DNA from: a virus
Virus genome (UHGV): UHGV-0103155
Direction: 5' to 3' (one strand)
DNA: 39,184 nt
Shown here: piece by piece, positions 7,346 through 27,553 of the stretch
How the letters are laid out: each line of letters starts with the position of its first letter
Position numbering within the stretch: position 1 is the stretch's first letter
Translations under genes and position numbers: made by a program
Notes under the pieces: model-generated
What the model saw: the letters and a program-made list of their open reading frames with translations, nothing else
The model's database searches: none
Told to the model about the DNA's origin: nothing

Positions 7346-7415
7346 GGACGAAACAAAAGTCAGTGCTACACTCATTGACGCCACATTGAGGTGGCTTATA
7401 GATGGAAATTTCACA

Positions 7416-7579: not shown

Positions 7580-7598
7580 ACAAGGCCGCGAAAGCGGC
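7580..7598 (-). terminator. Hairpin GGCCGC-GAAA-GCGGCC with T-run on minus strand
   Basis: Perfect 6-bp GC stem; T-rich tract follows in minus-strand orientation, downstream of lipoprotein gene. Confidence 0.5.
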
Positions 7599-7600
7599 CT

Positions 7601-7612
7601 GTGACATGTCAC
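7601..7612. promoter_or_regulatory. 12-bp perfect palindrome GTGACATGTCAC (copy 1 of 3)
   Basis: Exact sequence also at about 25278 and 27542; sits where plus-strand cargo genes converge on the minus-strand lipoprotein gene end. Confidence 0.5.
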
Positions 7613-7989
7613 GCAACGCAATTATTACCGCGCCATGTAACATTTTTAATAATCTTATCAGCACCAAACTCAACGTAAACAGAGCAACTGAAATGGAGTG
7701 TATAACCGCCATCAGTTGTTGCGTATGTGTTTGAATATATAGTATTACCAATTAGATTAGACGTAGTATTATACGTTGTGGTTTGTGGTACGTTATAACT
7801 ACCAGAGCTTGAGTAAACATACACTCTGTTTCCATCTGGAGATGTAAGCTCTCCCTGAGGATACCCCCACTGCTGAACCATTGCGTCTATACTCTGCCCG
7901 CGCCACGTAAGCATATTTCTTTCAAACTGTGCAGCTGACTGGCATCCAACGAGAAGCATAAATCCAAAAATCAAAAATACTTTTCTCAT
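7609..7989 (-). CDS. Lipoprotein, function unknown (possible surface-modifying or superinfection-exclusion cargo)
   Basis: Signal peptide with lipobox LLVGC (MRKVFLIFGFMLLVGC…); Thr/Ser/Asn/Tyr-rich mature region; AT-rich gene. Confidence 0.6.
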   Translation of the reverse strand: MRKVFLIFGFMLLVGCQSAAQFERNMLTWRGQSIDAMVQQWGYPQGELTSPDGNRVYVYSSSGSYNVPQTTTYNTTSNLIGNTIYSNTYATTDGGYTLHFSCSVYVEFGADKIIKNVTWRGNNCVA

Positions 7990-8208
7990 AATTACCCCTA
8001 TCATGGAAAAACAGCACCAATCCACAAATTAACTAGTTATTTTATTATTCTTCCGAACAATACAATTCCGAATACTACAAAGCCGAACCATGCCGCTGCA
8101 CGCAACAGAGATTCCAATTGAAACCCATTTTTATCAAAATGTATGAATAGCATAAAAACGCTGCACATATTAGTACAATAAAAGTTATTTGAACCATCAT
8201 ATCTCCTT

Positions 8209-10683
8209 TTATTGCGGAGTGACATCCTGTGGTCGCCACCAGTATGTCTGGTTAAACTCTTTCTTCGAACGTTGCTCCATTTTACGTAAATAGCCTGGTG
8301 AAAAATACTCCTGCATCTGGTTAAAGATCATGTGATCGAGAGCCGCCTTCAAGTACCAGAGATTCGCACCAGGCATCAAACCTTTCCCCAGCTTCACCAG
8401 ATCACCACCAGTCTGCTCACTCTTCCCTTCCACAGCATTTAACGGTATGCCCTGAGCAATCTTCACTACGTCATCAACCAGACCAGCTACCGGGCCAAGC
8501 ATCGACGCCAGCGCGCCGCTTCCGTACCTAGTGTGATCTGACAATAAAAAGTCACCGTAAAGGCCAAGACCACCACCTTTCAGTAGAGCACCAAGCCAGA
8601 ATTTTGCGGCATCTTCTCCTGTCATCTCTCGAGGATTACGACCAGACGCAAGGTCGTTAAGTTGCTGCGACAAAGCGCCAAGAATGGTCGTACTGGCAAT
8701 AAACGTCGCAATATATGCCGCACGCCCACCAGCAGACGGCATACCCATAGCGCGTGACCAGTGACGCATAACAACCGAGATAGGGAACGATTTAAACAGG
8801 AAAACACTTCTCGTTAATTCACCTTTCCATGTTCCACGCTGAATACCAGAACCGGTTATCAGTTGCTCACGTGCTCCCGGTGTAATAACAGCCATATCAA
8901 CTTCTTCAGTTACGGCACCGAGCAGTTTACGCATTGCCTCAAATTTCACGCGTTCAGGCTCACCAAGATGTTTAACTGCTGAATCAGGGATACGCATAAT
9001 GCTTTCCGGTGTCAGCATCATATTATTACCGTTCCCCCAGTCCTCCTGTTTCGCCAGCTTCCATACGCTCCAGTCTGTGTCAGTAATCCCTTTGCTTTTC
9101 AGGATACGAAAATCAGAGTCATCGAGGCTACGAAGGTCTGGTGTCCGTGACACTACTTCTCCCAGGCTTCCCATCATGGTTACGCCATAGGCGCGCTTGT
9201 GCGCATCTGACCATGCTGTAAGCCCACTGGCACGCATTACCGCCGTTGCCGCCCAACGAGACACTGACGGCCCCATATTATCCATCGCCCAGCGGTTAAC
9301 GCTGCCAAGTAGAGATTCCATCGCCAGACCAGCGCGGCGCGCCCGCGCAAGTTCTGTACGGTTCGTTGGGTCCATAGCTTCAAGCTGGTTGCGGAATAAC
9401 TGGTTCATTGGAAGGTTGGTAACCTTCGCAGACAGATACATGGTTCCAAGATCAGAGAACGATGACAGCAACGCGGATCCGAGTCTGCTGGCAACCAGCC
9501 AGTTGCGGATATTGTCAGACCATCGCGCGATGTGCGGATTCGCTACAGGCTGTGTCTTTCCGGAAATAAAGTTGTACAGATTCTCTGTGTTGTTCGCCAG
9601 CCGCTCGACTTTACCGGTTTTACTCGGGTTAGCTGTTGCCGTTTCTGCCTTCACCTGATCAAGAAGAGAGCGGAAAACATGATCGGGGTTTGGGCCATAT
9701 GTTTCCACCAGTGCAATATCTTTACTGATACCTTCCAGGTGACCGACCATGATTTCCCATAGAGAGCGATCGCCATAAAGTTGCTGATATTGCAGATAGG
9801 AATCTGCATCTTTGAAATGTATCTGTCGTGATGCATTACCACGGTTAGCACGTGCGCCGGAAATTCGCATTCCGGTATCAGTAAGCTTATTCAGCCCACC
9901 AGTAGCGATCGTGTTATAAGCCTCTCCAAGAAATGAAGACAACTCGGCATCGTTCATCAGTTGTCCATCGGCTCGGATATAATATTTGCGATCCAGCTTA
10001 CCTATAACATCGCTAACCCACTTATCCTTTGATACTGCCCCAACCTTTTCCATAGAATGATGTTGAGGGATCCCCCAGTTTTCGAGATAGCCAATGTCCC
10101 CACCAGCATCATTAAACCGGCGGCGCAGCAGCTCTGTAACTTCTCTCCACGCCTTAGCACCGTTTCTTGCTTTAGCATTGCCAGTATTTTGCCCCCGCAT
10201 TTCATATACCAGGTCACGTACGCCCGCTTCATCTTCAAACAGACCAAAAAAGCGAGGATCAACTGCTTCGAATGCCTCCTGCAATTGACTCAATGCATAA
10301 TCACGGGTGGCTTTTGTTCTGGATTCAACAGAGAGGAAATTAGATTTACCGTCTGCATTAAAAGCTATAGTACGGTTAAGAGCGCCAAGTTTCCCATCAG
10401 CCCCTTGATAGCTATTGATAAATTTATCCAATCTCTGACGCGCGGCTATAGTGAGAGCCACACGACGTTTCTTTAATGCCGCTTCTCGCTGTAATTCTTC
10501 AGATGCCAATTGTGCTGCTCGATATAGCCGCTCTGATTCGGAAAGTTGTCGCCACGATATAGGGTCATCACGAGCAATGGAGCGCATATTTCGATAAATG
10601 CGGTCTTCAATGTTCTGTATTTCTCGCGCCGTTAACGTGCGCTGCGCCGCCTGCTGGACCGCTTGTATACATTCCTGTCTCAT
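8209..10683 (-). CDS. Large internal virion / DNA-ejection protein
   Basis: 824 aa, one of three consecutive large ORFs between tail-tube genes and tailspike, position equivalent to T7 gp15/gp16 core proteins. Confidence 0.55.
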   Translation of the reverse strand: MRQECIQAVQQAAQRTLTAREIQNIEDRIYRNMRSIARDDPISWRQLSESERLYRAAQLASEELQREAALKKRRVALTIAARQRLDKFINSYQGADGKLGALNRTIAFNADGKSNFLSVESRTKATRDYALSQLQEAFEAVDPRFFGLFEDEAGVRDLVYEMRGQNTGNAKARNGAKAWREVTELLRRRFNDAGGDIGYLENWGIPQHHSMEKVGAVSKDKWVSDVIGKLDRKYYIRADGQLMNDAELSSFLGEAYNTIATGGLNKLTDTGMRISGARANRGNASRQIHFKDADSYLQYQQLYGDRSLWEIMVGHLEGISKDIALVETYGPNPDHVFRSLLDQVKAETATANPSKTGKVERLANNTENLYNFISGKTQPVANPHIARWSDNIRNWLVASRLGSALLSSFSDLGTMYLSAKVTNLPMNQLFRNQLEAMDPTNRTELARARRAGLAMESLLGSVNRWAMDNMGPSVSRWAATAVMRASGLTAWSDAHKRAYGVTMMGSLGEVVSRTPDLRSLDDSDFRILKSKGITDTDWSVWKLAKQEDWGNGNNMMLTPESIMRIPDSAVKHLGEPERVKFEAMRKLLGAVTEEVDMAVITPGAREQLITGSGIQRGTWKGELTRSVFLFKSFPISVVMRHWSRAMGMPSAGGRAAYIATFIASTTILGALSQQLNDLASGRNPREMTGEDAAKFWLGALLKGGGLGLYGDFLLSDHTRYGSGALASMLGPVAGLVDDVVKIAQGIPLNAVEGKSEQTGGDLVKLGKGLMPGANLWYLKAALDHMIFNQMQEYFSPGYLRKMEQRSKKEFNQTYWWRPQDVTPQ

Positions 10684-10688
10684 TTAAT

Positions 10689-12491
10689 TTAACCTCTCAA
10701 GAAACACGCCACAGCGACATCAAACAGGCTGGAATCCTGTATTGCCTGCTCACTTTCCCTGTTCGCTTCATCCAGTACTTCACGCGCACTGCGCGATTGT
10801 GGATTACCATCATCATCCAGCACGGTGATTATCATGTCAGGTGATTCAAGCAGCGAGTCTTCAGCTATGCGCAGATCAATATCTCCTGCCTTATCTGACA
10901 TCATTTTTTGTTCTGCCTGTTGCAATATTTTATCAGGCTCAAAAGGAGCTACTTCGTCTGGCGTCCTGACCTCTGCTGTTTTATAGAATGAAACAGCCTG
11001 AGCATTAAGTTCACTTTCTGCCTGCTGTCGCCGTGCCAGTTCTGCTCGAGCTTCAAAAAACTGACCGCCAGGCTCATGCGGTGCCAACGCGTTACGAGAA
11101 AATTCCAGGCGTTCTTGTGCCTGCCGGATTCGTTGGTCAATATCGCGAAGTCTGGCCTGTTTATCTGATCGAGCACGAGATAAAGCCTTACCGCTACCGG
11201 TTGGCTCTTCTGCAAGAATTTGTGCGCGCTGTTCAGTGAGATTTTCAATAATTCGTTGGCTATTAGCGATTTCAGACTGGTAAACCTGTCTATCGCCACG
11301 CGGTAAAAGCTGCGCGGCCTGTTCTTCAAGCAACCGATTTTCTATAGCGCGCGCCGTTACTCCATCATCTACAGATGACAGAGCCTCATTAACTGCCTGA
11401 GACAGCAGACTCTTGCGCCCAGGAATTTCACTGAAAGATGCAGACTCAACAATGCTGGCAACGTCTACAGGTCTCCCCTGGCTAACATCAGACATAGCTT
11501 TTCGCATAGCCTGAATGTGAGAATTGCGCGAAAGCACGTTGATCGGCACGCCGGGCGCAATATCAATTTCAGCATGATGAGCGGCATTCGCCGCCAGTGC
11601 AGCATCAACATCAACTGGTGAAAAATTTGGTGCGCTTGTAGACTCGCCGCGAGAGTTAATAAATCTGCCGACACCACCAAACGCCACTCCAAGAACAGCA
11701 TCAATAGCAATTGCCTGTCGATCCAACACATCATACTGGTTAGCCATTTCGCTATAGCCACCATCACGAAGCGTTTTTGCAGTAAGCCCACGCTGTGCCA
11801 TACCGAACGCAATATTTGTACCTGCGGCATAGGCAATATCTGGCGTTGCACGTACTGCTGTTGCTGCGGCGCGTCGCACTGAACTTTCACCCGTCCGCGC
11901 AAGCTGAGCCGCCACACCTTCCGCCAGCGCACCACCAGCACGTAACCCGAGGCTCATAGGGATCAGTGTTCCGGCACCAGCAGTAATACCCTGCACTAAT
12001 CCCGCTTCCTGCGCCGTCCTGAAATCAACACCCTGTGCTGTAAGCCGTTCAAACTCAGAAAAACCCTGTAGAGAAGTTACCGCCGCAGCACCTCCGACCG
12101 GACCACCGAGCGTTGTACCGACAACAGCCTGCCCGCCCATATCGAACAACCCATAAAGGACCTGCCCGGCGGTTCCGGTTGTCGCGGCATCAGGCGTCAG
12201 CCGCTTAACCTGCTGCTCTGCTAGTTTTCTCTGCTCAGCAATGTATGAAACTGAAGTGTCATTGATCGAGGTGTTTTCGTTAACAAACTGAGCAATCGGG
12301 GATACGATTTTATCCATCCCTGCCCATAGCAACTGATCTGGCTTTGCCACCAGCCCGGAGTACAAACCAGACAATGCCGCTCCTACAGCATTGTCGAAAA
12401 AACCAACATCGCTGTTAAAGCCAGCTGGATTTGATGCTGCTTCGTCAAGCTGCTGATTCTGGTTTACTGGATTAAGGCCAAAGTAACTCAT
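10689..12491 (-). CDS. Internal virion / DNA-ejection protein
   Basis: 600 aa, Ala/Gly-rich, in the ejection-protein block; translationally coupled to upstream gene. Confidence 0.5.
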   Translation of the reverse strand: MSYFGLNPVNQNQQLDEAASNPAGFNSDVGFFDNAVGAALSGLYSGLVAKPDQLLWAGMDKIVSPIAQFVNENTSINDTSVSYIAEQRKLAEQQVKRLTPDAATTGTAGQVLYGLFDMGGQAVVGTTLGGPVGGAAAVTSLQGFSEFERLTAQGVDFRTAQEAGLVQGITAGAGTLIPMSLGLRAGGALAEGVAAQLARTGESSVRRAAATAVRATPDIAYAAGTNIAFGMAQRGLTAKTLRDGGYSEMANQYDVLDRQAIAIDAVLGVAFGGVGRFINSRGESTSAPNFSPVDVDAALAANAAHHAEIDIAPGVPINVLSRNSHIQAMRKAMSDVSQGRPVDVASIVESASFSEIPGRKSLLSQAVNEALSSVDDGVTARAIENRLLEEQAAQLLPRGDRQVYQSEIANSQRIIENLTEQRAQILAEEPTGSGKALSRARSDKQARLRDIDQRIRQAQERLEFSRNALAPHEPGGQFFEARAELARRQQAESELNAQAVSFYKTAEVRTPDEVAPFEPDKILQQAEQKMMSDKAGDIDLRIAEDSLLESPDMIITVLDDDGNPQSRSAREVLDEANRESEQAIQDSSLFDVAVACFLRG

Positions 12492-15001
12492 TGCGGAATA
12501 TCTCCGGAGAATCTCTGACGCTTCTGTGTCAGATTAAGAACAACGGGAGAACCATCATCTTTCAGCAGATAACCAGTACCAAGTTTCACCAGGTACTGAC
12601 TATCGCCGTAACTTTGCAAACCATACTGACCAGGCGGTGTTTTTATCCCGGAGCCGACAACTTGTTCATTCCAAGCCTGATTAACCTGCTTATCGAATTG
12701 CTCTGCAGACATTCCCCACGGCAAAAGGACATTCCCCATTCCGTTATAGTCATGCACGCCACCTGTAGCTACGTTAACAGCCTGTTTCCAGACATCATTG
12801 TCAATTTCGCCTGATACCACGCCTTTTTTCGCCATCACACCAGCGTAATAATCCTTTGCGATCTCGTATGCCATTGATGCGCCCTGAGCGTCACCAGCAA
12901 ATGCATCCTTCACCATGTCAGAAAACTCAAGGCGAAGATCAGCATCTTTAGGCATCGGAATACCTTTCGCATCATCAGTACCTTTACGAGCCGCCGCGCC
13001 AGCAAGAATTGTCTGCGCAGCGGTTTCAGGAGACACGGAAACATCCGGATTAAACCAGTTTTTTTCTGCCAAAATACCACCAGGCTTATCCATCAGTATC
13101 CCGGCAACGGCAGCAGATGGAGCGTTGGCACTGATCTGCTGTAGTGCTGACATATACACCTGCCCACCACCAGTGCTCTGCCTGATGGTATCGAGATATG
13201 CTGCCTGTTGGGAAACTGGAGCATCACGAAAGAAAACACCGATCTGATTGGCCTCGTCTTTGGAAAAGAACGTCAGTGGAGTGCCATATGACTTAGCAAG
13301 GTCACTGACCTGAGCGGCACGCAAGGCAACGCTCTGTCCAAAGTTATCCTTATTGCTCATGTCGATAGGCTTTGCCTGTCCGGAGGCAAGAGAGAACTGC
13401 ACAGGATCCGACTGCCGCTGCTTTATCACCTGATTTGCAGCCGAAACAACGTTGTCATAAAGAGTTGCGCGTGCCGCATACCCCTCCCCTGTATCACCAG
13501 TATCCGGGCGTAATTGCTCAACATATGCTGTAATGCTGCTTGTCGGCATGTTGCGGAAAGAGCCTATATACTGTCCGGCGATCTGCGTATTCTTAAACTC
13601 GGTATATCGCAGGTTTCCTTCTCTGACTCCATAAGCTGCAATAAAATCATCCTCACCAGGTGGGTTAGGAAATTCAATGCCACGCATATACGCAGCCGTC
13701 GCATCGCGAACCCGGCTGTCGAGCATCGTTTTATATTCAGCCTGCTGTTGTCTGGCTAGTGCATCAGTCTGTCGCAACACGCTGGCCTGATCTGATTCAC
13801 TTAAAGCATCGAACCAGGCTACACCGGTATAACGTTTATTTTTTGTCGGTAGCTGAGAAAGCCCCAGCGCAGCACTAACACCTGCAGTTAACTGCTGATC
13901 ACTGTATGGCTGGCTACCGTTTTCATGATGGATAATGGCTGCACAAAGCGCCTTCAGGGTATCAGGATTTGATGCATCGAGAGGCTCATCAGCAGAAACG
14001 CCAAGTTGTTCGCACACTGCTTTGATATACGACATAGTGTCATTTTTATCAGTAGGCGGTGCCCAGCGATTAATTATCTCGCTGACGGTATCAATACCCT
14101 GCCGCTGATACGACATCAGGTTCCGCCCTAATGCACGAATACCGTGTTCAGGGGTTTCGAATTTGGCAAAGCGACCATCATCACCAGTCTGCCCAACCCA
14201 CGGATTAGTTTTGCTGTATTCAAGATTGCCGGGGTTATTGTTGCGTATACCGCGGGTACGATCGGAAGAGCCACTATCTGCTACAGCACGGCGAGAACCA
14301 GCAGCAGTATCGCTTAACTCGCCGTTTTGCTGTCTTACCTGAAGATAGTTTGCTCCAATAGCATTTTGAGCAGTTGCTTTTGCTGTTGCTTCTTTAAACT
14401 CGATTTTCTTGGCCTGGATTTGCTCGTCACTCCAGCCATGTGCAATGCCGTAATCCTCAATTTGCTGGAAAGTTTGCTTATTAGCCAATACGTATGCGGC
14501 GTTGTCGCCATACAATGCTGCGGCATTTTTACCATTGTTCAGCAGCGTAGCCTGAAACTGGCCTTCTTCGTAGGCATTTATTTGCCCTATCTCGTGCCGC
14601 CCGGCCTGCGTAGTGAACTGAATGCGCTGCTGCTGCGCCTGCTGCATGAAAGCATTACGAGCCTGTTCATCCGGCAGCGACATAGCCAGTTGTTCGACCT
14701 GAGCATCAAACTGCTGCGTATACTCCTGACCTTTTCCAATAGCATTTTTCCCTTTCAGGTTAAGCAAACCTGTTTCAGGGTTATTCAGCAGATCGCTGCT
14801 TATCTGGCTTAAGCTAAGAGAAGCATCCTGAGCCATAGCAACATTCGCACGCTGTTTTGCCTGCGCAATAATACCTGCATATTGCTCTGCAACATCGCCA
14901 AGTACATCACCGACATTTGGTGTCTGAAACGATGAGAATCCCTGCGTCGAAATCCCTCTGCTCTGAACCTGACGGCCCGATGTTGTTGGTACAACTGGCA
15001 T
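12488..15001 (-). CDS. Large internal virion / DNA-ejection protein
   Basis: 837 aa; position and size match podoviral core proteins. Confidence 0.55.
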   Translation of the reverse strand: MPVVPTTSGRQVQSRGISTQGFSSFQTPNVGDVLGDVAEQYAGIIAQAKQRANVAMAQDASLSLSQISSDLLNNPETGLLNLKGKNAIGKGQEYTQQFDAQVEQLAMSLPDEQARNAFMQQAQQQRIQFTTQAGRHEIGQINAYEEGQFQATLLNNGKNAAALYGDNAAYVLANKQTFQQIEDYGIAHGWSDEQIQAKKIEFKEATAKATAQNAIGANYLQVRQQNGELSDTAAGSRRAVADSGSSDRTRGIRNNNPGNLEYSKTNPWVGQTGDDGRFAKFETPEHGIRALGRNLMSYQRQGIDTVSEIINRWAPPTDKNDTMSYIKAVCEQLGVSADEPLDASNPDTLKALCAAIIHHENGSQPYSDQQLTAGVSAALGLSQLPTKNKRYTGVAWFDALSESDQASVLRQTDALARQQQAEYKTMLDSRVRDATAAYMRGIEFPNPPGEDDFIAAYGVREGNLRYTEFKNTQIAGQYIGSFRNMPTSSITAYVEQLRPDTGDTGEGYAARATLYDNVVSAANQVIKQRQSDPVQFSLASGQAKPIDMSNKDNFGQSVALRAAQVSDLAKSYGTPLTFFSKDEANQIGVFFRDAPVSQQAAYLDTIRQSTGGGQVYMSALQQISANAPSAAVAGILMDKPGGILAEKNWFNPDVSVSPETAAQTILAGAAARKGTDDAKGIPMPKDADLRLEFSDMVKDAFAGDAQGASMAYEIAKDYYAGVMAKKGVVSGEIDNDVWKQAVNVATGGVHDYNGMGNVLLPWGMSAEQFDKQVNQAWNEQVVGSGIKTPPGQYGLQSYGDSQYLVKLGTGYLLKDDGSPVVLNLTQKRQRFSGDIPQ

Positions 15002-15013
15002 CTTATTATCCCC

Positions 15014-18488: not shown

Positions 18489-19096
18489 CAGGACAACCTC
18501 GCAATGGTAAACTCATCAACCGGTGGCTGTGGTTCCTGTGATTCATTCTGGCTATGCGAGCCAGCACTAAGAATCACGCGATTGTACATATTGAGGGCAA
18601 ACGTACCGAGGTCTGCATTCCCAGTCAGCGCCATGTTAATAGCTGCCGCAAGACGCCAGGCCAACGCCTCCATAAAAATGGCATCAAACATGTTCACATC
18701 TGAAACGCGAGAGACATACTTGAGCCATGCCTGCGGCTGGTCTGTGTAGATCAACTTTCCTGTTCCGTTGGTGTCTGCACCAACTTCGTACTGAACGCGC
18801 ATTGCTGCTGTTGGATTGCGTACACCAGGAAGCATAATTTCAGTAATGCGCAGACAATCGGACGGGTACTGGTACGCATATTCCCAGTCAGGCGGTGGAT
18901 TGTTCGTATCTGCAAGCGCCACGCGTTTGGTAGCAAAGTTCCAGTCAAAATCAGAAAGCACAGCATCACGGCAGGCCTCAAAGTGCAGCGAACATTCCCC
19001 TGCTTCCTTGCTGGCTTCCGTCAGGCTGTTAATGCTGCGGCTGTTGCCAATATTGGACAGCGCACGATTACAGATCTCTACTACAGAGGCCATCAC
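18488..19096 (-). CDS. Tail tubular protein A-like (T7 gp11-like adaptor)
   Basis: 202 aa, immediately upstream of gp12-like gene, N-terminal similarity pattern to gp11. Confidence 0.5.
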   Translation of the reverse strand: MMASVVEICNRALSNIGNSRSINSLTEASKEAGECSLHFEACRDAVLSDFDWNFATKRVALADTNNPPPDWEYAYQYPSDCLRITEIMLPGVRNPTAAMRVQYEVGADTNGTGKLIYTDQPQAWLKYVSRVSDVNMFDAIFMEALAWRLAAAINMALTGNADLGTFALNMYNRVILSAGSHSQNESQEPQPPVDEFTIARLS

Positions 19097-19422: not shown

Positions 19423-19466
19423 TCCTGCAATAAAGGGGCCGAAGCCCCTTGTCGGATTCGCGAGGC

Positions 19467-19811: not shown

Positions 19812-19812
19812 C

Positions 19813-20250
19813 TTAACCAGTTACTTTTGAGCGGATCGGATACGGCGTATTGGCATCAACATCAAGGCTGATACCAGCAGAGAATTCGCCAGCCGTTAGT
19901 GGGCCAGTTGCGACGGAGTAGTTAACACGCAGATATCGCTGAACACCGGCAGGCACCTTTGCAGAAACAACTCGTTTACCTGCTGTCAGGGCGGTCTTTG
20001 CCAGTGCGCCACTATCATAAATAGTGGTCCATGAGCTGTTATTCTCACTCGTCTGCAACTGGATGTTTACAGTTGCATCACCGCTTGCCGCGGCGGCTGT
20101 GTTAACCAGCGCCCAAAACTCAAGCGGGTAACCCACGCCGATATCACGACGTTTTCCGTCAATTGGACCGAGATCGATTACGTCAGTAGAAGCCGCGGTA
20201 TTCGTAACCGCCTGAGCTTCGGAGAACATCAACAGTTTGTCGGTGATCAT
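19813..20250 (-). CDS. Hypothetical structural protein (possible capsid decoration/staple protein)
   Basis: 145 aa, Ala/Thr/Ser-rich, immediately downstream of major capsid gene. Confidence 0.4.
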   Translation of the reverse strand: MITDKLLMFSEAQAVTNTAASTDVIDLGPIDGKRRDIGVGYPLEFWALVNTAAAASGDATVNIQLQTSENNSSWTTIYDSGALAKTALTAGKRVVSAKVPAGVQRYLRVNYSVATGPLTAGEFSAGISLDVDANTPYPIRSKVTG

Positions 20251-20301
20251 CTTCTTTCTCCATTAGTGGGTCTGTTACGACCCACAGGTTAATAACAGGC
20301 G

Positions 20302-21294
20302 TTACACCACGCGGGCTTCTGTTTCCAGAAGCGCATCAGTTTCACGGATTGGTACACCACGGAATGAAGTCCACCACTCGCCTTCTGTCTCTTTTACGCT
20401 GATCGCCAGAGATGTTTTCTCCAGAGATTGCAGATCAAGAGCCTGGCCTACAGTGCGGTTCATGTAGAACACCGGGCGACCCATGCCACGGTTTGGAATT
20501 CGATGCAGTGCTTTAACCATCAACTTCGCAATATTTGCGGCAGAGGAAGGTTCTGAAAGATTGCTGACATCGATGTTTGCAATGCGAACAACATAACGCC
20601 AGTCACGCAGAGCAAGTCCGTTGTCCCATTTGTAATGGGTACGGTAGCCTTCGTACTTGCCGCCATTAGCATCTTCCAGTGTCACCTGGCCTTTATCTTC
20701 CATCTGGATGCCAGCCTTCTGCCCTTTCGGGAAGATGCCATGCACGGTGTTTTCGCCCCACACCACTAACCAGATTGAGGTGTTATCTGTCCCCGTGCCA
20801 CCAGCATCAATGATGTTCTGAGCATTACCCGCAGACAGGCTGGAATAGCGGGAGGACAGTCCCATAAACTGCTGAGGGTTAACGCTGGAATCACCATAAA
20901 ACAGCGTCTGCGCCATCTGCTGATTCATCGCTTCAATAAATGCGCGGTCTTCAGACAGGCGGAATTCGGCGGTATTGCCGTTCAGATCAGCCAGTGACTT
21001 ATCGACTTCAGCATAGGTTTCCAGCATGCCCACGGAATCGGTTACCTGCACTGTGGTTGATTTGCTTGGCTGTACGCCATAGTTCAGCAAACGCCAGGTA
21101 GCTGAAGGTAAACCAGAACGAATGGTGGTGCGGTGTCCGGTTGGAAGGTTGCCTTCGACAAAAGGCATATCCTGAAGGATCGGGTTAGTTTGACCGAGAA
21201 GCTCGATAATCTTATCGACTTTCCCGTTTGGATCGACGCGCTTACCCCAGTCAGCCAGCGTTAGCGCAGTTAAGCCTTTAACAGACATTGTCAT
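20302..21294 (-). CDS. Major capsid protein
   Basis: 330 aa, follows scaffold gene; sequence character of HK97-fold podoviral coat proteins. Confidence 0.75.
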   Translation of the reverse strand: MTMSVKGLTALTLADWGKRVDPNGKVDKIIELLGQTNPILQDMPFVEGNLPTGHRTTIRSGLPSATWRLLNYGVQPSKSTTVQVTDSVGMLETYAEVDKSLADLNGNTAEFRLSEDRAFIEAMNQQMAQTLFYGDSSVNPQQFMGLSSRYSSLSAGNAQNIIDAGGTGTDNTSIWLVVWGENTVHGIFPKGQKAGIQMEDKGQVTLEDANGGKYEGYRTHYKWDNGLALRDWRYVVRIANIDVSNLSEPSSAANIAKLMVKALHRIPNRGMGRPVFYMNRTVGQALDLQSLEKTSLAISVKETEGEWWTSFRGVPIRETDALLETEARVV

Positions 21295-21302
21295 TTCCTC
21301 TC

Positions 21303-22004
21303 TTATTTGCCATAGAGCACTTCGGCCGCACTACGCTGGCCTTCATTACCACCGGTGACCATGCCATCTTCAGACATCGCCTTTCCGATTTTCACGAACG
21401 TTTTGACCAGATCAGGGTGATTACCCAGCCCGGTGGTGTTCAGATATTCTTTGAGTTCAGGTGTCCCGAACTGGTCAAGCGCACGCTGTGCGGCGCTAAG
21501 GTTAGAAATCAACTTGTCGCCACCGATTTCTTTGTCAGCTTTTACATCCGCAGCCCACTGCTCGGTTGTTTTCTGCCAGGCTTCTGTCTGGCGCTGCTGA
21601 ACACCTGCCAGAATCTTCGGATAAGCATCAACCAGCTTTTGCGCTTGCTCGTTGGTCAGGTTAAGTTCTCGCGCCACCGGCTCGAATTCCTTCAACGCTT
21701 CTGTATCCAGCTCTACGCCTTCGGCAGCCTGAAACTCGTACTTCTCAGGCGCACCCTCTGGTTTATCGCCGTCCTTTTTTTCATCCTGCTTATCGTTTTC
21801 AGGCTTTTTGTCATCAGCAGGTTTATCGCCATCAGCAACAGGTTGTGGCTTATCACCTTCCTGTTGTGATGGATCACCAACTGGAGCAGGGTTATCACCT
21901 GCAGGCGCTGACGGTTCTGACGCAGCCGGAGCTGCTCCACCATCGACTGGTTGCTCATTGCAAAGACGGCTATACAGCAAACGCTCAAATAAATTCATGA
22001 TCAC
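21303..22004 (-). CDS. Scaffolding protein
   Basis: 233 aa, highly acidic Pro/Asp/Lys-rich low-complexity N-half and helical C-half; between portal and capsid. Confidence 0.65.
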   Translation of the reverse strand: MIMNLFERLLYSRLCNEQPVDGGAAPAASEPSAPAGDNPAPVGDPSQQEGDKPQPVADGDKPADDKKPENDKQDEKKDGDKPEGAPEKYEFQAAEGVELDTEALKEFEPVARELNLTNEQAQKLVDAYPKILAGVQQRQTEAWQKTTEQWAADVKADKEIGGDKLISNLSAAQRALDQFGTPELKEYLNTTGLGNHPDLVKTFVKIGKAMSEDGMVTGGNEGQRSAAEVLYGK

Positions 22005-22297
22005 TCCTGTTCACTGGCCTCTTTGGCCATCTTCAAATACTGTTCAGGGCAATGCGCCATAACGCGCTGAAACAGTTCCAGCGCCAGATTGCGTTGCCCC
22101 TCATTAAATGCCATTGCCATAGCGTCCATCGGTGAGATAGCGGAAAACACACGGCCTTTCTCCAGCACCGACCAGACAACGCGACGCCCCTGTTCACTGC
22201 TCATGACAAAGCGAATGTCATCAATTTCACGCTGTGCCATGTCACGTTGCTTACGGGCGTTTTCTTCTTTCAGTTGATCGTCTTCGTAATCTGTCAT
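22001..22297 (-). CDS. Hypothetical head-module protein
   Basis: 98-aa charged ORF coupled between portal and scaffold genes. Confidence 0.4.
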   Translation of the reverse strand: MTDYEDDQLKEENARKQRDMAQREIDDIRFVMSSEQGRRVVWSVLEKGRVFSAISPMDAMAMAFNEGQRNLALELFQRVMAHCPEQYLKMAKEASEQE

Positions 22298-23973
22298 TGT
22301 GATTGCCCACCCTGACCACTAACTGCATTAGCCATAGCTGACAAAACACTCGGATCCGAAGTTTTAGCTTCGCTTAGCGTCTTGGCACCCTGTGCCGCCG
22401 CCATCCCCATCGCCATCATTTGTTGCTGCTGTTGCTGCTGTGCCCGTTGCTGGCGAGCCTGCTCAACCTGTTCCTGCGGAACAATGACGGTTGGAGACAC
22501 TCCGGACATATCAGCGAATGCATCGATCGCCTGATCAACGTTGAGTTTGTCGAGAGCTTCTGGTTTCGCTTGCGCAAGTTGACCAATGAAGTTAACCGTG
22601 GACGCCAGACTGGACAGGCCGATAGACTTCTGCGCCTGAGCCATGACGGAAATGTATTCGACCTTCAGGGGCATACCTTCCATCGCGTCAGGCGGTGGCG
22701 GCAGCATGTTTTTACGCACCATCATCGAGAAAGCGCGGTCAATGAGAGGGTTAAGACATTCGTCGTTCAGACGCTCCAGAACCGGCCCCAACATCAGAAG
22801 CTTTTCTTCTTTCATTTCGATCACTGCTTCAACAGGCATCGAGCGGGTATTGATGTTCTGCAACATCATGAACAGATCGACAAAGTAGGCGCTGTTAATG
22901 ATTTGACGGGTGTCCTGAATGTCTGCTACCAAATCTGCTGTACTGGGGTTAACCAGATAAGCAGGCCTGAAGCAATCCTGACCAGTAATCTGATCGATAT
23001 ACGTGATGTCGCCAGGAAGAAGGGAGGCGCGCTGATTCTTGAGGGAAGTCGGAGCAACCATCGGCGGATCGGTGGCTTTATCAATCAACTGCGACTTGCG
23101 CTTCTGGAGAAGCTGCAATGCCTTAACAGGTCCAAGCGCCAGCATACCCGGGCATGATGATCCATAAACATCTTCGCCGTTAACTTCCCAGCGCGGAGCC
23201 ATAATTGGAAACTCATCGAATCCGGACTCACGCAACAACTTGTCGTTATCGCCACCAACCTCGTAATAAACCGATTTGAATGGCTTGTTCTTGCTATCCA
23301 GCTTCGATGTATCGCGGTCAATGTTCGGGTAAACCGAATGCATCACTTCAATCCACTTCTCGTAGGTGCCGCTTTCCCACATGCTTTTTACGGATTCGCT
23401 GACGTTATTTAGCCCGAACTCCTGAACAAGCTGACGAACAGTCATAGAGAACTTGCGAAAACAGGTGTCCACACTGCCACGAGGTGAGTTAGCCAGGTAG
23501 TAACTGCCTATCGGGAATGGCATTGTGCGAATGATGTCCTCGTCATCCTCCAGCACCGCCATTGCACCAGTGCTGTATGTGCCGAGGCTTCCGTATAACT
23601 GCGGAAGAGACTGGTAGAGATTCGACTTATTGAACATATCGTTCATGCGGTTCTGCACCGCCTCAAGCCACAACTTAACAGGGCCATAATCCATCATTTC
23701 AGGATCTGGCGTAGCCAGGCGAAACCACGGACGCGCGGGGCTTGTGATGCCTGACATCATGCCGCTGGCGAGAGTGCGCGCCGCCATAGTCCCGGTCGAA
23801 TCAATAATGCGTGTATTGCGTCGATCGTTACGGTTGACCTCAGAAGTCAGAAAGCGGGAACCACGCGGGTTGATGTAATCACTCAACTCGCGCCAGTGCG
23901 GCTCGAACGACTGACGCTCGCTTTCAAGTTGTGCGAACTGTTTGTTCAATCGCTCTTTAGTTGTTTCCGCCAT
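22294..23973 (-). CDS. Portal protein
   Basis: 559 aa, downstream of large terminase, Gln/Ala-rich C-terminal tail, upstream of scaffold/capsid. Confidence 0.8.
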   Translation of the reverse strand: MAETTKERLNKQFAQLESERQSFEPHWRELSDYINPRGSRFLTSEVNRNDRRNTRIIDSTGTMAARTLASGMMSGITSPARPWFRLATPDPEMMDYGPVKLWLEAVQNRMNDMFNKSNLYQSLPQLYGSLGTYSTGAMAVLEDDEDIIRTMPFPIGSYYLANSPRGSVDTCFRKFSMTVRQLVQEFGLNNVSESVKSMWESGTYEKWIEVMHSVYPNIDRDTSKLDSKNKPFKSVYYEVGGDNDKLLRESGFDEFPIMAPRWEVNGEDVYGSSCPGMLALGPVKALQLLQKRKSQLIDKATDPPMVAPTSLKNQRASLLPGDITYIDQITGQDCFRPAYLVNPSTADLVADIQDTRQIINSAYFVDLFMMLQNINTRSMPVEAVIEMKEEKLLMLGPVLERLNDECLNPLIDRAFSMMVRKNMLPPPPDAMEGMPLKVEYISVMAQAQKSIGLSSLASTVNFIGQLAQAKPEALDKLNVDQAIDAFADMSGVSPTVIVPQEQVEQARQQRAQQQQQQQMMAMGMAAAQGAKTLSEAKTSDPSVLSAMANAVSGQGGQSQ

Positions 23974-23987
23974 TTCAATGACTCCGG

Positions 23988-24194
23988 TTACTGACCAAGC
24001 AGCGTTTTACCGCTGGTATTAGCGGTTGATTTGTCGCCCTGAGAACCGGTAAGCAGCGTAGAACTACGACCAGCAGCAGCGCGACGGCGACGAGTTTCTT
24101 CGTCGCGGGCATCAACAACGGCGGCATCCTGCTCCTGTGGTGCTGCCTGAACTTCTGGTGTTGCAGGCACTGATGGTGAGCTACCCATGCACAT
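23988..24194 (-). CDS. Hypothetical small protein upstream of portal
   Basis: 68 aa; its RBS/start context (GGAGTCATTGAT-ATG) nearly duplicates that of portal. Confidence 0.35.
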   Translation of the reverse strand: MCMGSSPSVPATPEVQAAPQEQDAAVVDARDEETRRRRAAAGRSSTLLTGSQGDKSTANTSGKTLLGQ

Positions 24195-24262
24195 ATCAAT
24201 GACTCCGTACGCAATTAAACTATTACCAATTTAACCACATATGATTTATTTATCGTAGATAG

Positions 24263-24299
24263 TTGACATTTAACGCACAAATTATTACCTTTCAGGTAA
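24263..24299 (+). promoter_or_regulatory. Promoter (-35 TTGACA) with overlapping operator-like site TTACCTTTCAGGTAA
   Basis: Consensus -35 hexamer followed about 17 bp later by AT-rich -10 region overlapping a perfect TTACC-N5-GGTAA palindrome. Confidence 0.45.
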
Positions 24300-24620
24300 C
24301 CAAAGAGTTCATTCCGGTTACTAACCTGACTGGCTTGTCGTTAAATTGAACAGGTGGAGTGAGCTTTTATTTTGAGCAGTACGGCGTATGGCACATGCGC
24401 CGGTAGCGGTCTGGATACGTTTAAGGGGCACCCTCCCTTGCTCGGGAAAACGAACCAGGTAGCCGGAATGTGCAAGTCGAGCGGTTTTATTCCGCGCACG
24501 GGGATTCACCATCCCGGCGATTCGGTGTGACGCCTCGGAAGAGACGAGGGTACAACGATGAGAGCATTTATGGAGCCGCGACAAAGTGTGGCGCCTTAAC
24601 AGGCTAAGTGCTCTCAGCGT
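24300..24620 (+). ncRNA. Unassigned GC-rich structured non-coding leader upstream of tRNA-Arg (candidate ncRNA or degenerate tRNA remnant)
   Basis: No credible ORF on either strand; several internal inverted repeats; lies between promoter and tRNA. Confidence 0.2.
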
Positions 24621-24621
24621 T

Positions 24622-24698
24622 GTGGCATTAGCTCAGTTGGACAGAGCAACCGCCTTCTAAGCGGTTGGTCGCAGGTTCGAATCCTGCATGCCACGCCA
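24622..24698 (+). tRNA. tRNA-Arg (anticodon UCU)
   Basis: Cloverleaf readable: acceptor GTGGCAT/ATGCCAC, D-loop AGCTCAGTTGG, anticodon loop CTTCTAA, T-loop GGTTCGAATCC, 3' GCCA. Confidence 0.9.
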
Positions 24699-24742
24699 GA
24701 ATCACGCCTAAGGACCGTGATGCCAGAAGTTCCAGGGGCTTG

Positions 24743-24790
24743 GCGGTGATGGTTTCCCTTGAAGGGCTATCACCGCCCTTTTTACAGCAG
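24743..24790 (+). terminator. Hairpin GGCGGTGAT…ATCACCGCC followed by CTTTTT
   Basis: 9-bp stem with larger loop and T-run, just downstream of tRNA. Confidence 0.4.
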
Positions 24791-24857
24791 GACGCCATTG
24801 CGATGACTTCATGCTGTAAACCAGTACAGCCACGGAAGGCATAACTCATTGCTTCCA

Positions 24858-24882
24858 GTTCGCCCGGTTCGCCGGGCATTTT
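24858..24882 (+). terminator. Hairpin GCCCGG-TTCG-CCGGGC followed by ATTTTTTT (terminator or attenuator directly before the Gp49-like gene RBS)
   Basis: Perfect 6-bp GC stem, tetraloop, T7 run. Confidence 0.5.
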
Positions 24883-24901
24883 TTTAAGGTGAGATTAGAC
24901 T

Positions 24902-25273
24902 ATGAGTGACAAAGACATTGAATCTGAAATTCAGGCTAAAGGTTTAGCCGCGCCGCGCGTTACGCCAGACCATATCGAGAGCATTATTGCTCAGGAGGCA
25001 TATTTCACAGCAGAAGATGGTGTCTTTGGCGTAGCCATAAAAGCGAAACATACTGGCGGAGAGGTAAACTACCAGCCGCACGAATCACTTTCTCTGCTGA
25101 CGTTCTGCGTTCTGGTGCTGCGCAACGGCTTCACCGTCACCGGAGAGAGCGCCTGTGCAAGCCCGGAAAACTTTGATGCGGAAATTGGTCGGAAGATTGC
25201 CCGGCAGAATGCTGTAAACAAAATCTGGATGCTTGAAGGTTACTTGCTGAAGCAGAAGTTAAGCGAGCAATAA
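24902..25273 (+). CDS. Gp49-like phage protein (function unknown)
   Basis: 123 aa with AAGGTGAG RBS; sequence recalls the Gp49-type small phage proteins; opposite strand to flanking structural genes. Confidence 0.5.
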   Translation: MSDKDIESEIQAKGLAAPRVTPDHIESIIAQEAYFTAEDGVFGVAIKAKHTGGEVNYQPHESLSLLTFCVLVLRNGFTVTGESACASPENFDAEIGRKIARQNAVNKIWMLEGYLLKQKLSEQ

Positions 25274-25277
25274 CACC

Positions 25278-25289
25278 GTGACATGTCAC
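25278..25289. promoter_or_regulatory. 12-bp perfect palindrome GTGACATGTCAC (copy 2 of 3)
   Basis: Immediately after the Gp49-like stop codon, in the convergent gap facing the large terminase gene. Confidence 0.5.
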
Positions 25290-25320
25290 AAACAGCCAGC
25301 CGATGAGCTGGCTTTGTTTT
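25290..25320 (+). terminator. Rho-independent terminator
   Basis: Stem AGCCAGC/GCTGGCT then TTTGTTTT. Confidence 0.55.
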
Positions 25321-25363
25321 ATCCTCACCAGAGGATATCTCCGTCATTATCCCCGCTAACGGA

Positions 25364-26839
25364 TTAAGCATAGGGATCGTAATCTGTGATGGCCTTGCCT
25401 TGCTGGTTCTGCTGACCGGGAATTCGCAGACGCTTCGACACAGGGAACGCAAACGTCAGCAGTAGCGCATCGCCTTTACCAGGAGAACGCCCAAGCCGCT
25501 CTTTGATATCTTCCTTCGGTTCGATAACGATTTTACCGTCCACTCGAACTTTGTACTCTGCCGCCGACAGGTCGTCCGCTGTTTCATGGTCATCCAGCAT
25601 GCCGCCAAGCCTCAGCCATGTCTTGCATGAGTTGAACATCTCCCCACGCTTGTTGAGCATCTGCGGGTCAGTAGACGCGCCACCGAACGGAACAAGTTGC
25701 CATGTACGACCCCAGCCGTCACCGATTGACTTCAAACCGGTTCCGTAACCAAAGTCGATGAACACCGCGTCAGCCTGATACTGGTCTTCAAAGTCAGCGA
25801 TACGCTTCGCCATAATCAGATCGTCGGTAGTCTTGTTTCCAGTCCACAGCACCTTACTGTGTAGCCCCTGCCGCAGGTATATCACCGCGTCATCAACGCC
25901 TGAATATGCCGGGTCAACGCCGATTATCACCGGAGCATGTGCAACCTGCGCAGCGGTTACCACCCGTTTCATTGCCTCGTCAGTAAGGCCGGTAGGGATA
26001 AACTGCAATTCAGATGCATCAGGGAATATGCCACGCACACGGATTTTAACGAAGTCGCTGTCTTCCCCGTAGTCATCAACCCATTTCTGCAACTGCTGTT
26101 TGTTGGTACCTTCCACCGTCCGACTGTCAATCTGCGCAGTTTTCCAGCGGTGTTTATACTTGCGGAAACATTCACGGAAACGTCCGGTATTACGCGTCGG
26201 GTTTCCGAACGCCACCCAGATAATCTCAGTGTCTTCGTCCGTTAGCGCACCCTCGGCAACTTCCCACACCAGATCCGCAATGTTCGACGCTTCATCGAAT
26301 ACCACGATGATGCGTTTGCGCTCATTGTGTAATCCGGCGAATGCCTCAGTGTTGTGCTCAGACCAGGGGATTGCGTCAGCTCGCCACCGCTTGTCGTGCC
26401 CAGGGTCATTGCTGTACATCGCGGTAGCGGTACAGGTAAACCAGTCTTTCGTGATAGCAAGGTTCGACCACTTGATAATTTCCGGCCATGTCTTCGTTCG
26501 TAGCTGGTTGTCGGTGTTGGCGGTCACCACGACCTTACAATCCTCGCAAGTGGACATGCCCCAGTTGATCAGCATTGAGATGAATGCGGATTTACCAATA
26601 CCGTGACCCGAAGCACGTGCCAGCATAAGCGGCTGATAGCGCGTCTCTGGATTCTGCAGGTGGTCACGTATCTCTCGGAACGCATCGGCCTGCCACTGAC
26701 GTGGACCGGTGGCATGTGCCAGTTCAGTCCCCTCTTCCCCCCACGGGAACGCATAGAGGGCATAGCCAAGCGGATCGTGAGTGAACCCTGCAATATCCTC
26801 GATCAACTGCTCTTCAGGAGATAACGCTGTATCTGTCAC
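25364..26839 (-). CDS. Terminase large subunit
   Basis: 491 aa; N-terminal ATPase region with Walker A-like GHGIGKS and C-terminal nuclease-like region; coupled to small subunit gene (ATGA overlap). Confidence 0.85.
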   Translation of the reverse strand: MTDTALSPEEQLIEDIAGFTHDPLGYALYAFPWGEEGTELAHATGPRQWQADAFREIRDHLQNPETRYQPLMLARASGHGIGKSAFISMLINWGMSTCEDCKVVVTANTDNQLRTKTWPEIIKWSNLAITKDWFTCTATAMYSNDPGHDKRWRADAIPWSEHNTEAFAGLHNERKRIIVVFDEASNIADLVWEVAEGALTDEDTEIIWVAFGNPTRNTGRFRECFRKYKHRWKTAQIDSRTVEGTNKQQLQKWVDDYGEDSDFVKIRVRGIFPDASELQFIPTGLTDEAMKRVVTAAQVAHAPVIIGVDPAYSGVDDAVIYLRQGLHSKVLWTGNKTTDDLIMAKRIADFEDQYQADAVFIDFGYGTGLKSIGDGWGRTWQLVPFGGASTDPQMLNKRGEMFNSCKTWLRLGGMLDDHETADDLSAAEYKVRVDGKIVIEPKEDIKERLGRSPGKGDALLLTFAFPVSKRLRIPGQQNQQGKAITDYDPYA

Positions 26840-27432
26840 TGATTACCATCCTGACGTTCTTTGAGTCGCTTCCTGGCTGCCGCTATGCGATCAGCAATTG
26901 TCACATTCACATTAACATCCAGGCGTTCTTTGAACGCGTTGACGTCGACGTGCTTACCAATCAGTTCGAGGTTCTTCACCTTGTCAGGCCATTTAATTTT
27001 TTTGAGGATTGTCTCTATCGAATCCTCGTTCATGTTCATGATGGTCGATGACAGATCAAAGCCACTAAGCGTAGTGCGCCAGATTTTCGGCCACTCGCGG
27101 ATTGGCTTAAGGCTCCCATCGTCGTTGAGGATGTCGATCACGTCCATCTGGTCGATCTCCACCAGGCGCATGAGAACGTAATCAGCACTGACGCGCATTC
27201 GTTTGTTGCGCTCCTCCATCAACTCGGCAATCCGTTTTTGAATGCGTTCATCGCGCATCATGACACTGGCTTTAACTGCCGCTGTATTTGGGGAGAATCC
27301 TGCGTTAATCGCTGCCTGAGTCTGGTTTTCAGGCGTTTTGATGTATGACTGGCAATAAGCCTCCTGCATTGCTGTTAGTGGCTTAAATTGCGTTGATTTG
27401 CGTTTATAGGTTTTAGGTTCAGCAGGCATCAT
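26836..27432 (-). CDS. Terminase small subunit
   Basis: About 200 aa from internal start (MMPAEPK…) with AAGGTGG RBS; immediately upstream of and coupled to large terminase. Confidence 0.6.
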   Translation of the reverse strand: MMPAEPKTYKRKSTQFKPLTAMQEAYCQSYIKTPENQTQAAINAGFSPNTAAVKASVMMRDERIQKRIAELMEERNKRMRVSADYVLMRLVEIDQMDVIDILNDDGSLKPIREWPKIWRTTLSGFDLSSTIMNMNEDSIETILKKIKWPDKVKNLELIGKHVDVNAFKERLDVNVNVTIADRIAAARKRLKERQDGNQ

Positions 27433-27449
27433 AACCACCTTGGTAATAG

Positions 27450-27464
27450 TTACCGTTGTGGTAA
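27450..27464. promoter_or_regulatory. Palindromic operator-like site TTACCGTTGTGGTAA in small-terminase leader
   Basis: Perfect TTACC-N5-GGTAA about 20 bp upstream of the small terminase start, with additional half-sites around. Confidence 0.4.
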
Positions 27465-27541
27465 TAGTACCATGCAAAATAAAGCCGCCATAGTTGGCGG
27501 CAGTATTCAAAACCATCAAATTCATCATGCATAATCTACTC

Positions 27542-27553
27542 GTGACATGTCAC
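27542..27553. promoter_or_regulatory. 12-bp perfect palindrome GTGACATGTCAC (copy 3 of 3)
   Basis: Overlaps the stop codon of the 27550-27888 gene at the early/late boundary upstream of the terminase genes. Confidence 0.5.

Follow-up and report, generated by a model that had tools for sequence, protein, structure and literature searches.

A matS-like palindrome at operon boundaries of an epsilon15/phiV10-type prophage and its probable cognate protein

The virus genome UHGV-0103155, a stretch of 39,184 nucleotides that was analyzed at its full length and is called the window here, carries three exact copies of a perfectly palindromic 12-mer, GTGACATGTCAC: site A at 27542-27553, site B at 25278-25289 and site C at 7601-7612. 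We propose, with a probability of about one half for the explanation as a whole, that this 12-mer is a specific recognition site for a cognate dimeric protein, with a predicted ribbon-helix-helix (RHH) fold and a zinc knuckle, which acts on transcription at operon boundaries. The candidate is the product of the gene at 27550-27888 on the minus strand, a member of the PHROG 536 family. That this protein binds the 12-mer DNA is likely; more tentatively, the consequence may be transcriptional insulation by a roadblock, or modulation of RNA polymerase, rather than antitermination, DNA bridging or packaging. A preliminary description of this DNA had drawn attention to the three palindromes. It named neither the probable cognate protein, encoded by the very gene whose stop codon overlaps the motif, nor the observations that the motif generalizes to GTGAC-N2-GTCAC in unrelated phages and that it equals the matS site of Escherichia coli minus one base.

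Three palindromes between stop codons and terminators

The window is a complete prophage of the epsilon15/phiV10 type (genus Uetakevirus), whose structural genes are encoded by the minus strand. Where compared, its sequence shares 94-98% identity with the E. coli phages ZX5, PAS61 and phiV10 and the O157 typing phages 9 and 10; for Salmonella epsilon15 and SPN1S, and for Klebsiella relatives, the figure is about 80%. The earlier claim that three exact copies exceed chance is borne out: none of 100 dinucleotide-preserving shuffles contained the 12-mer, and the degenerate form GTGAC-N2-GTCAC occurs three times in the window against a Markov expectation of 0.018-0.029.

All three copies sit at operon junctions beside terminators, as the preliminary description had it. 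Site A marks the end of the early-right operon, and its bases 2-4, read on the minus strand, form the stop codon (TGA) of the PHROG 536 gene; 40 nt further on, an intrinsic terminator (27484-27501, minus strand), formed by the stem-loop GCCGCCAACTATGGCGGC followed by TTTATTTT, closes this operon and precedes the small terminase gene TerS. Site B lies between the stop codon of a moron, 4 nt away, and a terminator, at the convergent junction with the large terminase gene TerL; the stem-loop AGCCAGCCGATGAGCTGGCT (25294-25313, plus strand) follows 4 nt past the site in the direction of the moron and, having an A-run before it and a T-run after it, is bidirectional. Site C ends the late structural operon, contains the TGA stop of a lipoprotein gene and is abutted by a unidirectional terminator serving that operon (7583-7600, minus strand; stem-loop AGGCCGCTTTCGCGGCCT, then TGTTTTT). 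The order along transcription at every site is stop codon, 12-mer, terminator, with the 12-mer 0-40 nt upstream of the terminator. Two of the three sites are at convergent junctions, and the plus-strand antirepressor cluster that runs toward site C has no T-run terminator of its own before it. A copy with one mismatch, GTGCCATGTCAC, is found at 22234-22245 within the ORF 22001-22297, a small ORF downstream of the portal gene, and this variant is kept in phiV10, ZX5, PAS61 and TL-2011b.

Several other identities for the 12-mer were considered and rejected. It is not itself an intrinsic terminator: as RNA it forms a 4-bp stem of -1.2 kcal/mol (z = -0.03 against shuffles) with no U-run, and the real terminators are the separate neighboring hairpins. 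A restriction or methylation site ACATGT is not indicated, the hexamer showing no enrichment (8 observed, 12 expected). As for a sigma-70 promoter, GTGACA resembles a -35 element and one weak promoter-like match starts in site A, but no usable -10 element is present at sites B and C and the total is at the level of shuffles; the earlier suggestion of a late-gene regulator site likewise finds no support from promoter geometry at these two sites. The annotated sites of the epsilon15 repressor, ATTACC-N5-GGTAAT, differ from the 12-mer, and adjoin site A without lying at the motif. Finally, the motif is not a physical genome end or pac site; the phiV10 record has just been linearized after the last stop codon, inside the motif.

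Conservation of the 12-mer and exchange of its flanks

A search of related prophages, which the preliminary description had proposed as a check, recovers the 12-mer in 79 of 80 relatives from IMG/VR. It is present at all three homologous places in epsilon15 (2142, 19517 and 39612), SPN1S, ZX5 and PAS61; the Klebsiella phages, phiv142-3 and TL-2011b have it at no fewer than two of these places. Not one of the 12 positions varies among the representatives from E. coli, Salmonella and Klebsiella (BUCT711, Kp4865-1), while the 40-nt flanks of sites B and C practically defy alignment and compensatory substitutions are seen in the terminator stems. Invariance of the 12-mer amid diverging flanks and stems points to selection on the sequence itself rather than on RNA structure or coding frame.

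The 12-mers also coincide with mosaic joints: several TerS-side modules meet site A, at least eight unrelated morons meet site B and several different genes meet site C. At site B, each of these morons ends with its stop codon exactly 4 nt before the 12-mer, the stops and spacers preceding GTGACATGTCAC including TAAcacc, TAAcgcc, TAGctct, TAGcgcc, TGAtgtc and others. This coincidence is the part of the earlier proposal of a recombination hotspot for cargo exchange that stands; that the 12-mer causes recombination is unsupported, the 12 bases plus hairpin amounting to a short homology. A stronger version of this idea would deny the 12-mer any binding function and see in it a conserved linker at module boundaries, used in cargo exchange by RecE/RecT and carried along with the terminators. 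The joints at all three sites, the constant 4-nt offset of the morons at site B and the RecE/RecT-type recombinases encoded by the phage agree with it. Yet 12 bases are too short for efficient homologous exchange, and a linker leaves unexplained why 12 of 12 positions are conserved while the adjacent hairpins drift, why the same half-sites recur with different centers in ZF40, N15, Yersinia and Vibrio phages (below), and why the motif keeps a 2-bp spacer and a position on the stop codon of one gene family. We regard such a linker as quite improbable, and take the joints for a by-product of cargo exchange on either side of a conserved functional element, not for its function.

Some relatives carry further copies. 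SPN1S has a near-copy, GTGACATGTCAT, at 26722, where its lysis cassette ends and the site overlaps the stop codon of Rz; this copy is lineage-specific, since the window has ATAGCATGGCAT at the homologous place. The Klebsiella Uetakeviruses BUCT711 (26462 and 23066) and Kp4865-1 (24674 and 36317) possess an extra exact copy within a gp13-like internal virion protein gene, together with additional variants of the N2 type, GTGACGTGTCAC and GTGACCCGTCAC, in structural genes.

Co-occurrence of the motif with the PHROG 536 family

The gene ending within site A (27550-27888, minus strand) encodes 112 amino acids from its ATG and belongs to the family of epsilon15 gp49, phiV10 p55 and N15 gp46 (PHROG 536), which is distinct from the 'Gp49-like' family (PF13876) of the moron at site B. 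Its homologues occur in otherwise unrelated phages, among them podo-, sipho- and myoviruses that infect Enterobacterales and Vibrio. Every well-conserved homologue that we examined is accompanied by GTGAC-N2-GTCAC in the same phage, roughly 100-fold above the 0.02-0.04 copies per genome expected from a Markov model. Thus, the Pectobacterium myovirus ZF40, whose homologue is 66% identical, carries three copies of GTGACATGTCAC, one of them 2 nt past the homologue's stop. N15 and phiKO2 (36-39% identity) each have three copies of GTGACTGGTCAC in conserved places: on the stop of the homologue, inside repA and upstream of the antirepressor operon. A Yersinia P2-like phage (42%) has a single copy, GTGACGCGTCAC, again on the stop, and Vibrio K303 and a Vibrio-like prophage (L105; 32-38%) have three copies each, one of which lies 11-19 nt before the TerS start codon.

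The spacing, too, is strict. Enrichment is limited to the 2-bp spacer; the same genomes have virtually no sites with a spacer of 0, 1 or 3-6, and a spacer of 3 in particular occurs neither in the window nor in 10 out of 11 related or carrier genomes. GTGAC-N2-GTCAC was not found in lambda, P22 and P2, which lack a homologue. Lambda does contain two GTGAC-N1-GTCAC sites, at 9747 and 19010 (about 0.05 expected), and none with other spacers; these may be due to chance.

The association also holds when approached from the motif. Among 120 viral-contig stretches picked solely for the 14-mer TGTGACATGTCACA, which fall into 48 sequence-context clusters, a homologue of the family is present within the short stretch in 14 of the clusters, and in 7 the motif lies no more than 15 nt from the homologue's stop. 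As the whole PHROG 536 family comprises only 151 clusters at 50% identity in a library of 1.8 billion proteins, this association of motif with gene is very strong.

Across these lineages the central dinucleotide varies (AT, GC, TG/CA, AC) between constant half-sites; in N15 and phiKO2, the asymmetric center stands in both orientations relative to transcription. The fixed half-sites around a varying center, the two orientations, a palindrome that is perfect through its center and the weak RNA stem all favor recognition at the level of DNA, and fit a symmetric dimer docking on the duplex. With coding sequence making up about 90% of the genomes, about 60% of all the sites seen fall between genes or at their ends, a bias that points to a role in regulation.

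Individual sites within genes have features of their own. In ZF40, the copy at 7622 within gp12 (CII-like), like a copy at 8929 (L158) in a 20-member cluster of other viral contigs, is read in frame as Cys-Asp-Met-Ser-Gln, so that this is a site conserved inside a coding family of the early-right operon. In an N15-like prophage (L102, 5060-5100), the repA-internal GTGACTGGTCAC stands about 10 nt from tgggaccacggtccca, a palindrome resembling F sopC, placing two dyad sites next to each other.

The predicted protein

From an alignment of 58 sequences, AlphaFold2 yields a confident model of the 27550-27888 product (pLDDT 91), the run on the single sequence having been unusable (pLDDT 47). The model comprises a helix rich in Arg, Lys and Gln (residues 5-19), an extended segment, two helices, a Cys knuckle and a short terminal helix. 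Its core has the beta-alpha-alpha fold of the RHH (Arc/MetJ/CopG) superfamily, which by this model would dimerize into a two-stranded sheet. The pattern RK..QR.R of the N-terminal helix, AERKAAQRARQ in the window protein, is nearly invariant in the family, which matches the invariance of the DNA half-sites.

Profile comparisons returned weak matches. Pfam models of the RHH class match few members, at E-values of 0.013-0.07 (RHH_5 in 2 of 58, RHH_1 in 1 of 58), and there is a weak NCBIfam match to a LexA-regulated YbfE-type protein (E 0.05). Against PDB sequences, the family profile finds TraR (E 0.03) and YbiI (E 0.055), and hhalign gives TraR a probability of 67%, a weak score. Searches of Pfam, NCBIfam and PDB sequences with the phage protein otherwise returned no matches; the DksA/TraR family is absent from the top Pfam families for the 58 members, and a Foldseek comparison of the model with the PDB gave nothing significant.

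An arginine-rich, helical N-terminus also raises the prospect that the element is recognized as RNA, in the manner of lambda N and nut: a GUGA/UCAC hairpin 5' of the terminators would be bound by this segment and permit read-through at site A, from early into late genes, and at site C, from the late operon into the tailspike and lysis genes. The constant succession of stop codon, 12-mer and terminator agrees with such an arrangement, as does the lack of a Q or N homologue in these epsilon15-type phages. On the other side, the hairpin of 4 bp is marginal (-1.2 kcal/mol, z = -0.03), a palindrome perfect through its center is needless for an RNA loop, the asymmetric centers of N15 and phiKO2 occur in both orientations, and the modeled fold is that of a DNA-binding RHH protein. 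Further, the repressor operators that precede TerS, gp3 and the tailspike gene in epsilon15 suggest separate promoters instead of read-through. An RNA element of this kind is therefore very unlikely; a boxB of the nut type in the narrower sense was rejected on the marginal 4-bp stem, the absence of any consistent stem extension in the flanks and the mixed center orientation in N15.

Comparison with MatP/matS and other regulators

The closest known DNA element is matS of E. coli, with the consensus GTGACATTGTCAC or GTGAC[AG]N[TC]GTCAC, which MatP reads via its helix alpha4 and the RHH strand beta1 (PMC8669397; PMC3603311). The half-sites GTGAC and GTCAC are identical, and the 12-mer of the window is GTGACATTGTCAC less one central base. 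In both systems, few dispersed sites are, or in the phage would be, read by a dimer, and our model of the phage protein suggests a similar layout of a basic helix followed by an RHH strand. The differences are equally clear. The matS site is 13 bp long and the phage site 12 bp, and these phages contain no canonical matS; matS lies in the chromosome terminus and the phage sites at operon boundaries. True MatPs carry both a four-helix bundle (PF06303) and an RHH domain (PF17414), neither of which has a Pfam match in the window protein or among the top families for the 58 members; and where MatP has a C-terminal coiled coil for tetramerization and contact with ZapB, the phage protein has its Cys knuckle and short helix. 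The family profile aligned by hhalign to E. coli MatP scores a probability of 0.6%; a search for MatP homologues gave sequences at least 97% identical, apart from one aberrant 197-aa entry at 69%. Given the wrong site length and the lack of MatP domains, profile match, bundle and coiled coil, the phage protein is not a member of the MatP family. By analogy, the phage pair is nonetheless probably matS-like in how it works, and by differing in one base its sites may stay orthogonal to MatP.

This resemblance brings up a reader from the host: MatP tolerating a 12-bp matS, or some other host factor, could bind the motif and be used by the phage, or restrain it, at the boundaries. The identity to the matS consensus minus one central base agrees with this, as do the hosts of the motif-bearing phages, all Enterobacterales or Vibrio, where MatP occurs. 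Moreover, two complete genomes, E. coli phage SaltyDalty (copies at 18870 and 15420) and Klebsiella phage ST16-OXA48phi5.3 (one copy at 7537), are lambdoid phages that carry the motif without the RHH gene, no homologue appearing even at an HMM E-value of up to 10. These phage-borne copies can be accounted for otherwise: the cro-proximal copy in both coincides exactly with the junction between the stop of cro and the start of the gene after it (G-TGA-C-ATG-TCAC), and the copy inside Q of SaltyDalty encodes V-T-C-H, with variation among relatives only at a synonymous third base. They may be chance products of coding sequence, met because a very large collection was scanned, or genuine sites with another reader. 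Against a host reader stand the strict 2-bp spacing, with spacer 3 absent in 10 of 11 related or carrier genomes, and the absence of canonical matS from 500 Escherichia and Salmonella prophages reported by Bobay et al. (PMC3603311). A host factor would also leave unexplained the copy on the stop codon of the phage gene in many diverged lineages. We consider a host reader unlikely.

Two other families invite comparison with the phage protein. With the RHH repressors (Arc, Mnt, CopG, MetJ, PutA, AmrZ and the antitoxins of toxin-antitoxin systems) it would share short dyad targets and the character of a small regulator borne by a phage or plasmid; unlike these, its putative sites are at the 3' end of its own gene and at distant operon ends, not at its own promoter, and it has an additional N-terminal basic helix and a C-terminal zinc domain. 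That C-terminal half aligns with TraR of the F plasmid, including CxxCGxx(I/L)P...G...C. TraR and DksA bind RNA polymerase in its secondary channel, as do phage proteins of the lambda Orf73 and P2 Orf82 type. Only three of the four Cys align, however; the helix of TraR that enters the channel corresponds to the second helix of the RHH core in the phage protein, and TraR has no DNA-binding domain. We take the weak sequence similarity to TraR/DksA as a lead, not as demonstrated membership.

In function, parallels can be drawn with regulators that act on elongating polymerase at defined sites, as is proposed here: LacI at O3, lambda Q at qut and N at nut. O3 lies at the 3' end of the gene for LacI itself, where a roadblock goes along with tmRNA tagging. 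The gene of lambda Q, like the phage gene here, comes last in an early operon and immediately precedes the late genes. No homology links the phage protein to any of the three, and there is neither a promoter-proximal pause context as for Q nor an RNA of the boxA/boxB type as for N. Other dispersed palindromes of the form GTG...CAC are the 12-bp SlmA site GTGAGTACTCAC and the 18-bp N15 SopB repeats GTGCGACCNNGGTCGCAC, and both were rejected as identities of the motif. The SlmA site matches at 8 of 12 positions and has G5 and C8 where C5 and G8 are invariant across all lineages here; the N15 SopB centromere (IR1-4) has a different core, and the N15 repeats, for example GCGACCATGGTCGC in the gene-46 locus, lie elsewhere than the three GTGACTGGTCAC sites.

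Proposed mechanism and competing readings

We envisage that lytic growth brings expression of the protein from the early-right operon and that its dimer would dock on the three sites, 0-40 nt ahead of the terminators that close the early-right operon, the junction of moron and TerL, and the late structural operon. Bound there, it would act on RNA polymerase as a roadblock or insulator, making each boundary tight in both directions; a roadblock or termination-factor site was among the roles suggested in the preliminary description. At site C, where the plus-strand cluster lacks its own U-run terminator, the bound protein would make the boundary bidirectional. The recurrent position of the motif on the stop codon of the family's own gene suggests feedback in cis: at site A, the protein could act on the 3' end of its own mRNA, a polymerase stalled before the stop giving rise to a non-stop mRNA. 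The C-terminal TraR/DksA-like zinc finger might possibly touch RNA polymerase directly.

The main alternative gives the same protein an architectural role akin to that of MatP, in which bridging or marking of the sites would organize, condense or protect the DNA or guide terminase to the packaging start. The half-sites identical to matS and the similar modeled reading head of basic helix and RHH strand are in keeping with it, and so are the roughly three dispersed sites per genome in every lineage, often in genes where a transcription signal would be unexpected. In addition, TerS has a site shortly before it in the epsilon15 group, as it does in two Vibrio lineages, and sites A and B exactly bracket the terminase genes. 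The phage protein, however, lacks both the four-helix bundle and the C-terminal coiled coil of MatP, its zinc knuckle resembles a module that binds RNA polymerase, and the share of sites in intergenic regions and at gene ends (about 60%) is a distribution of the regulatory type. An architectural function thus appears rather improbable beside an action on transcription at the boundaries.

Several findings weigh against that preferred action as well. Individual sites are dispensable, as TL-2011b does without site B and phiV10 has a mismatch at one position of site A. Distant homologues in Aeromonas 13AhydR10PP, a P2-like element (L104) and a Mu-like one (L100) have no motif within 10 kb, and the motif in the two homologue-free lambdoid genomes keeps a host factor among the candidates. 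Outside the epsilon15 group, the sites are not beside terminators and are often inside genes (ZF40 gp08 and gp12, N15 repA), so the association with terminators may be lineage-specific; ZF40 and N15 also carry their own Q, which detracts from a terminator-centered role. A roadblock upstream of a terminator is partly redundant with it, and the similarity to TraR is weak.

A bolder and improbable extension would see in the pair a private 'mini-matS' of temperate phages of enterobacteria and vibrios, in which an RHH protein with a TraR/DksA-like knuckle, on sites that lack one base of host matS and are hence invisible to MatP, loads onto or arrests RNA polymerase. As a secondary-channel factor tethered to DNA, it would decide whether a boundary is crossed and limit its own synthesis by stalling polymerase at its own stop codon.

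Implications

PHROG 536 is annotated only as 'transcriptional regulator'; no member has been characterized, no target is known and there is no Pfam family. The 12-mer provides this family with a precise candidate DNA target. A literature search, whose coverage did not extend to the epsilon15 genome paper, returned no variant of the 12-mer in a phage context and no phage MatP-like protein or matS-like site; the ZX5 paper holds nothing on the motif, and the GenBank annotations of epsilon15 and phiV10 leave it unmarked. The motif and its putative reader may add a regulatory layer, beyond the published annotations, to epsilon15/phiV10-type phages, which are used for typing and biocontrol of O157 and Salmonella. 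The offset of one base from matS raises the question of how RHH readers measure the spacing of half-sites, and also whether phages deliberately stay orthogonal to host MatP/MukBEF or interfere with it. If the TraR-like knuckle does contact RNA polymerase, the protein would be a novel means of targeting a secondary-channel factor to defined places in a genome.

Neighboring genes and other features

The gene identities given in the preliminary description, namely the lipoprotein, the PF13876 'Gp49-like' moron and the last early gene before the terminase genes, hold. TerS (Terminase_2) extends over 26836-27431 on the minus strand, its likely true start being the ATG at 27431, which has a Shine-Dalgarno sequence and an operator-like repeat in front of it (compare the epsilon15 annotation). 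The mechanically called ORF 26836-27528 is over-extended, running 97 nt upstream of this start and through the terminator hairpin, and the annotation of TerS is inconsistent among relatives (594 or 675 nt). With the start probably at 27431, the terminator of site A and the operator-like repeat are intergenic. The ATTACC/GGTAA repeats in question (tactATTACCacaacGGTAActATTACC, 27443-27470) separate that terminator from the start of TerS; in epsilon15, elements of this type are annotated at the homologous place as Rep repressor sites, and the repeats are not the same element as the 12-mer. Their position before TerS suggests that the terminase operon has its own repressor-controlled promoter.

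TerL (25364-26839, minus strand) faces site B with its 3' end. Opposite to it, the moron of the N4 Gp49/Sf6 gp66 family (PF13876) spans 24902-25273 on the plus strand. At site C, the last gene of the late operon in the window is the lipoprotein gene (phrog_3716; 7609-7989, minus strand), coding for 126 amino acids from MRKVF...LVGC with the signal sequence MRKVFLIFGFMLLVGC; relatives have other genes in its place. The convergent plus-strand cluster, which includes a Bro-N antirepressor (5815-6540), has its last gene at 7344-7577. ARAGORN predicts a tRNA-Arg(tct) at 24622-24698 on the plus strand, overlapping the ORF 24628-24879 (minus strand; phrog_4647), and a tRNA-Arg is annotated in the same interval in relatives, where in phiv142-3 it lies on the strand of the structural genes.

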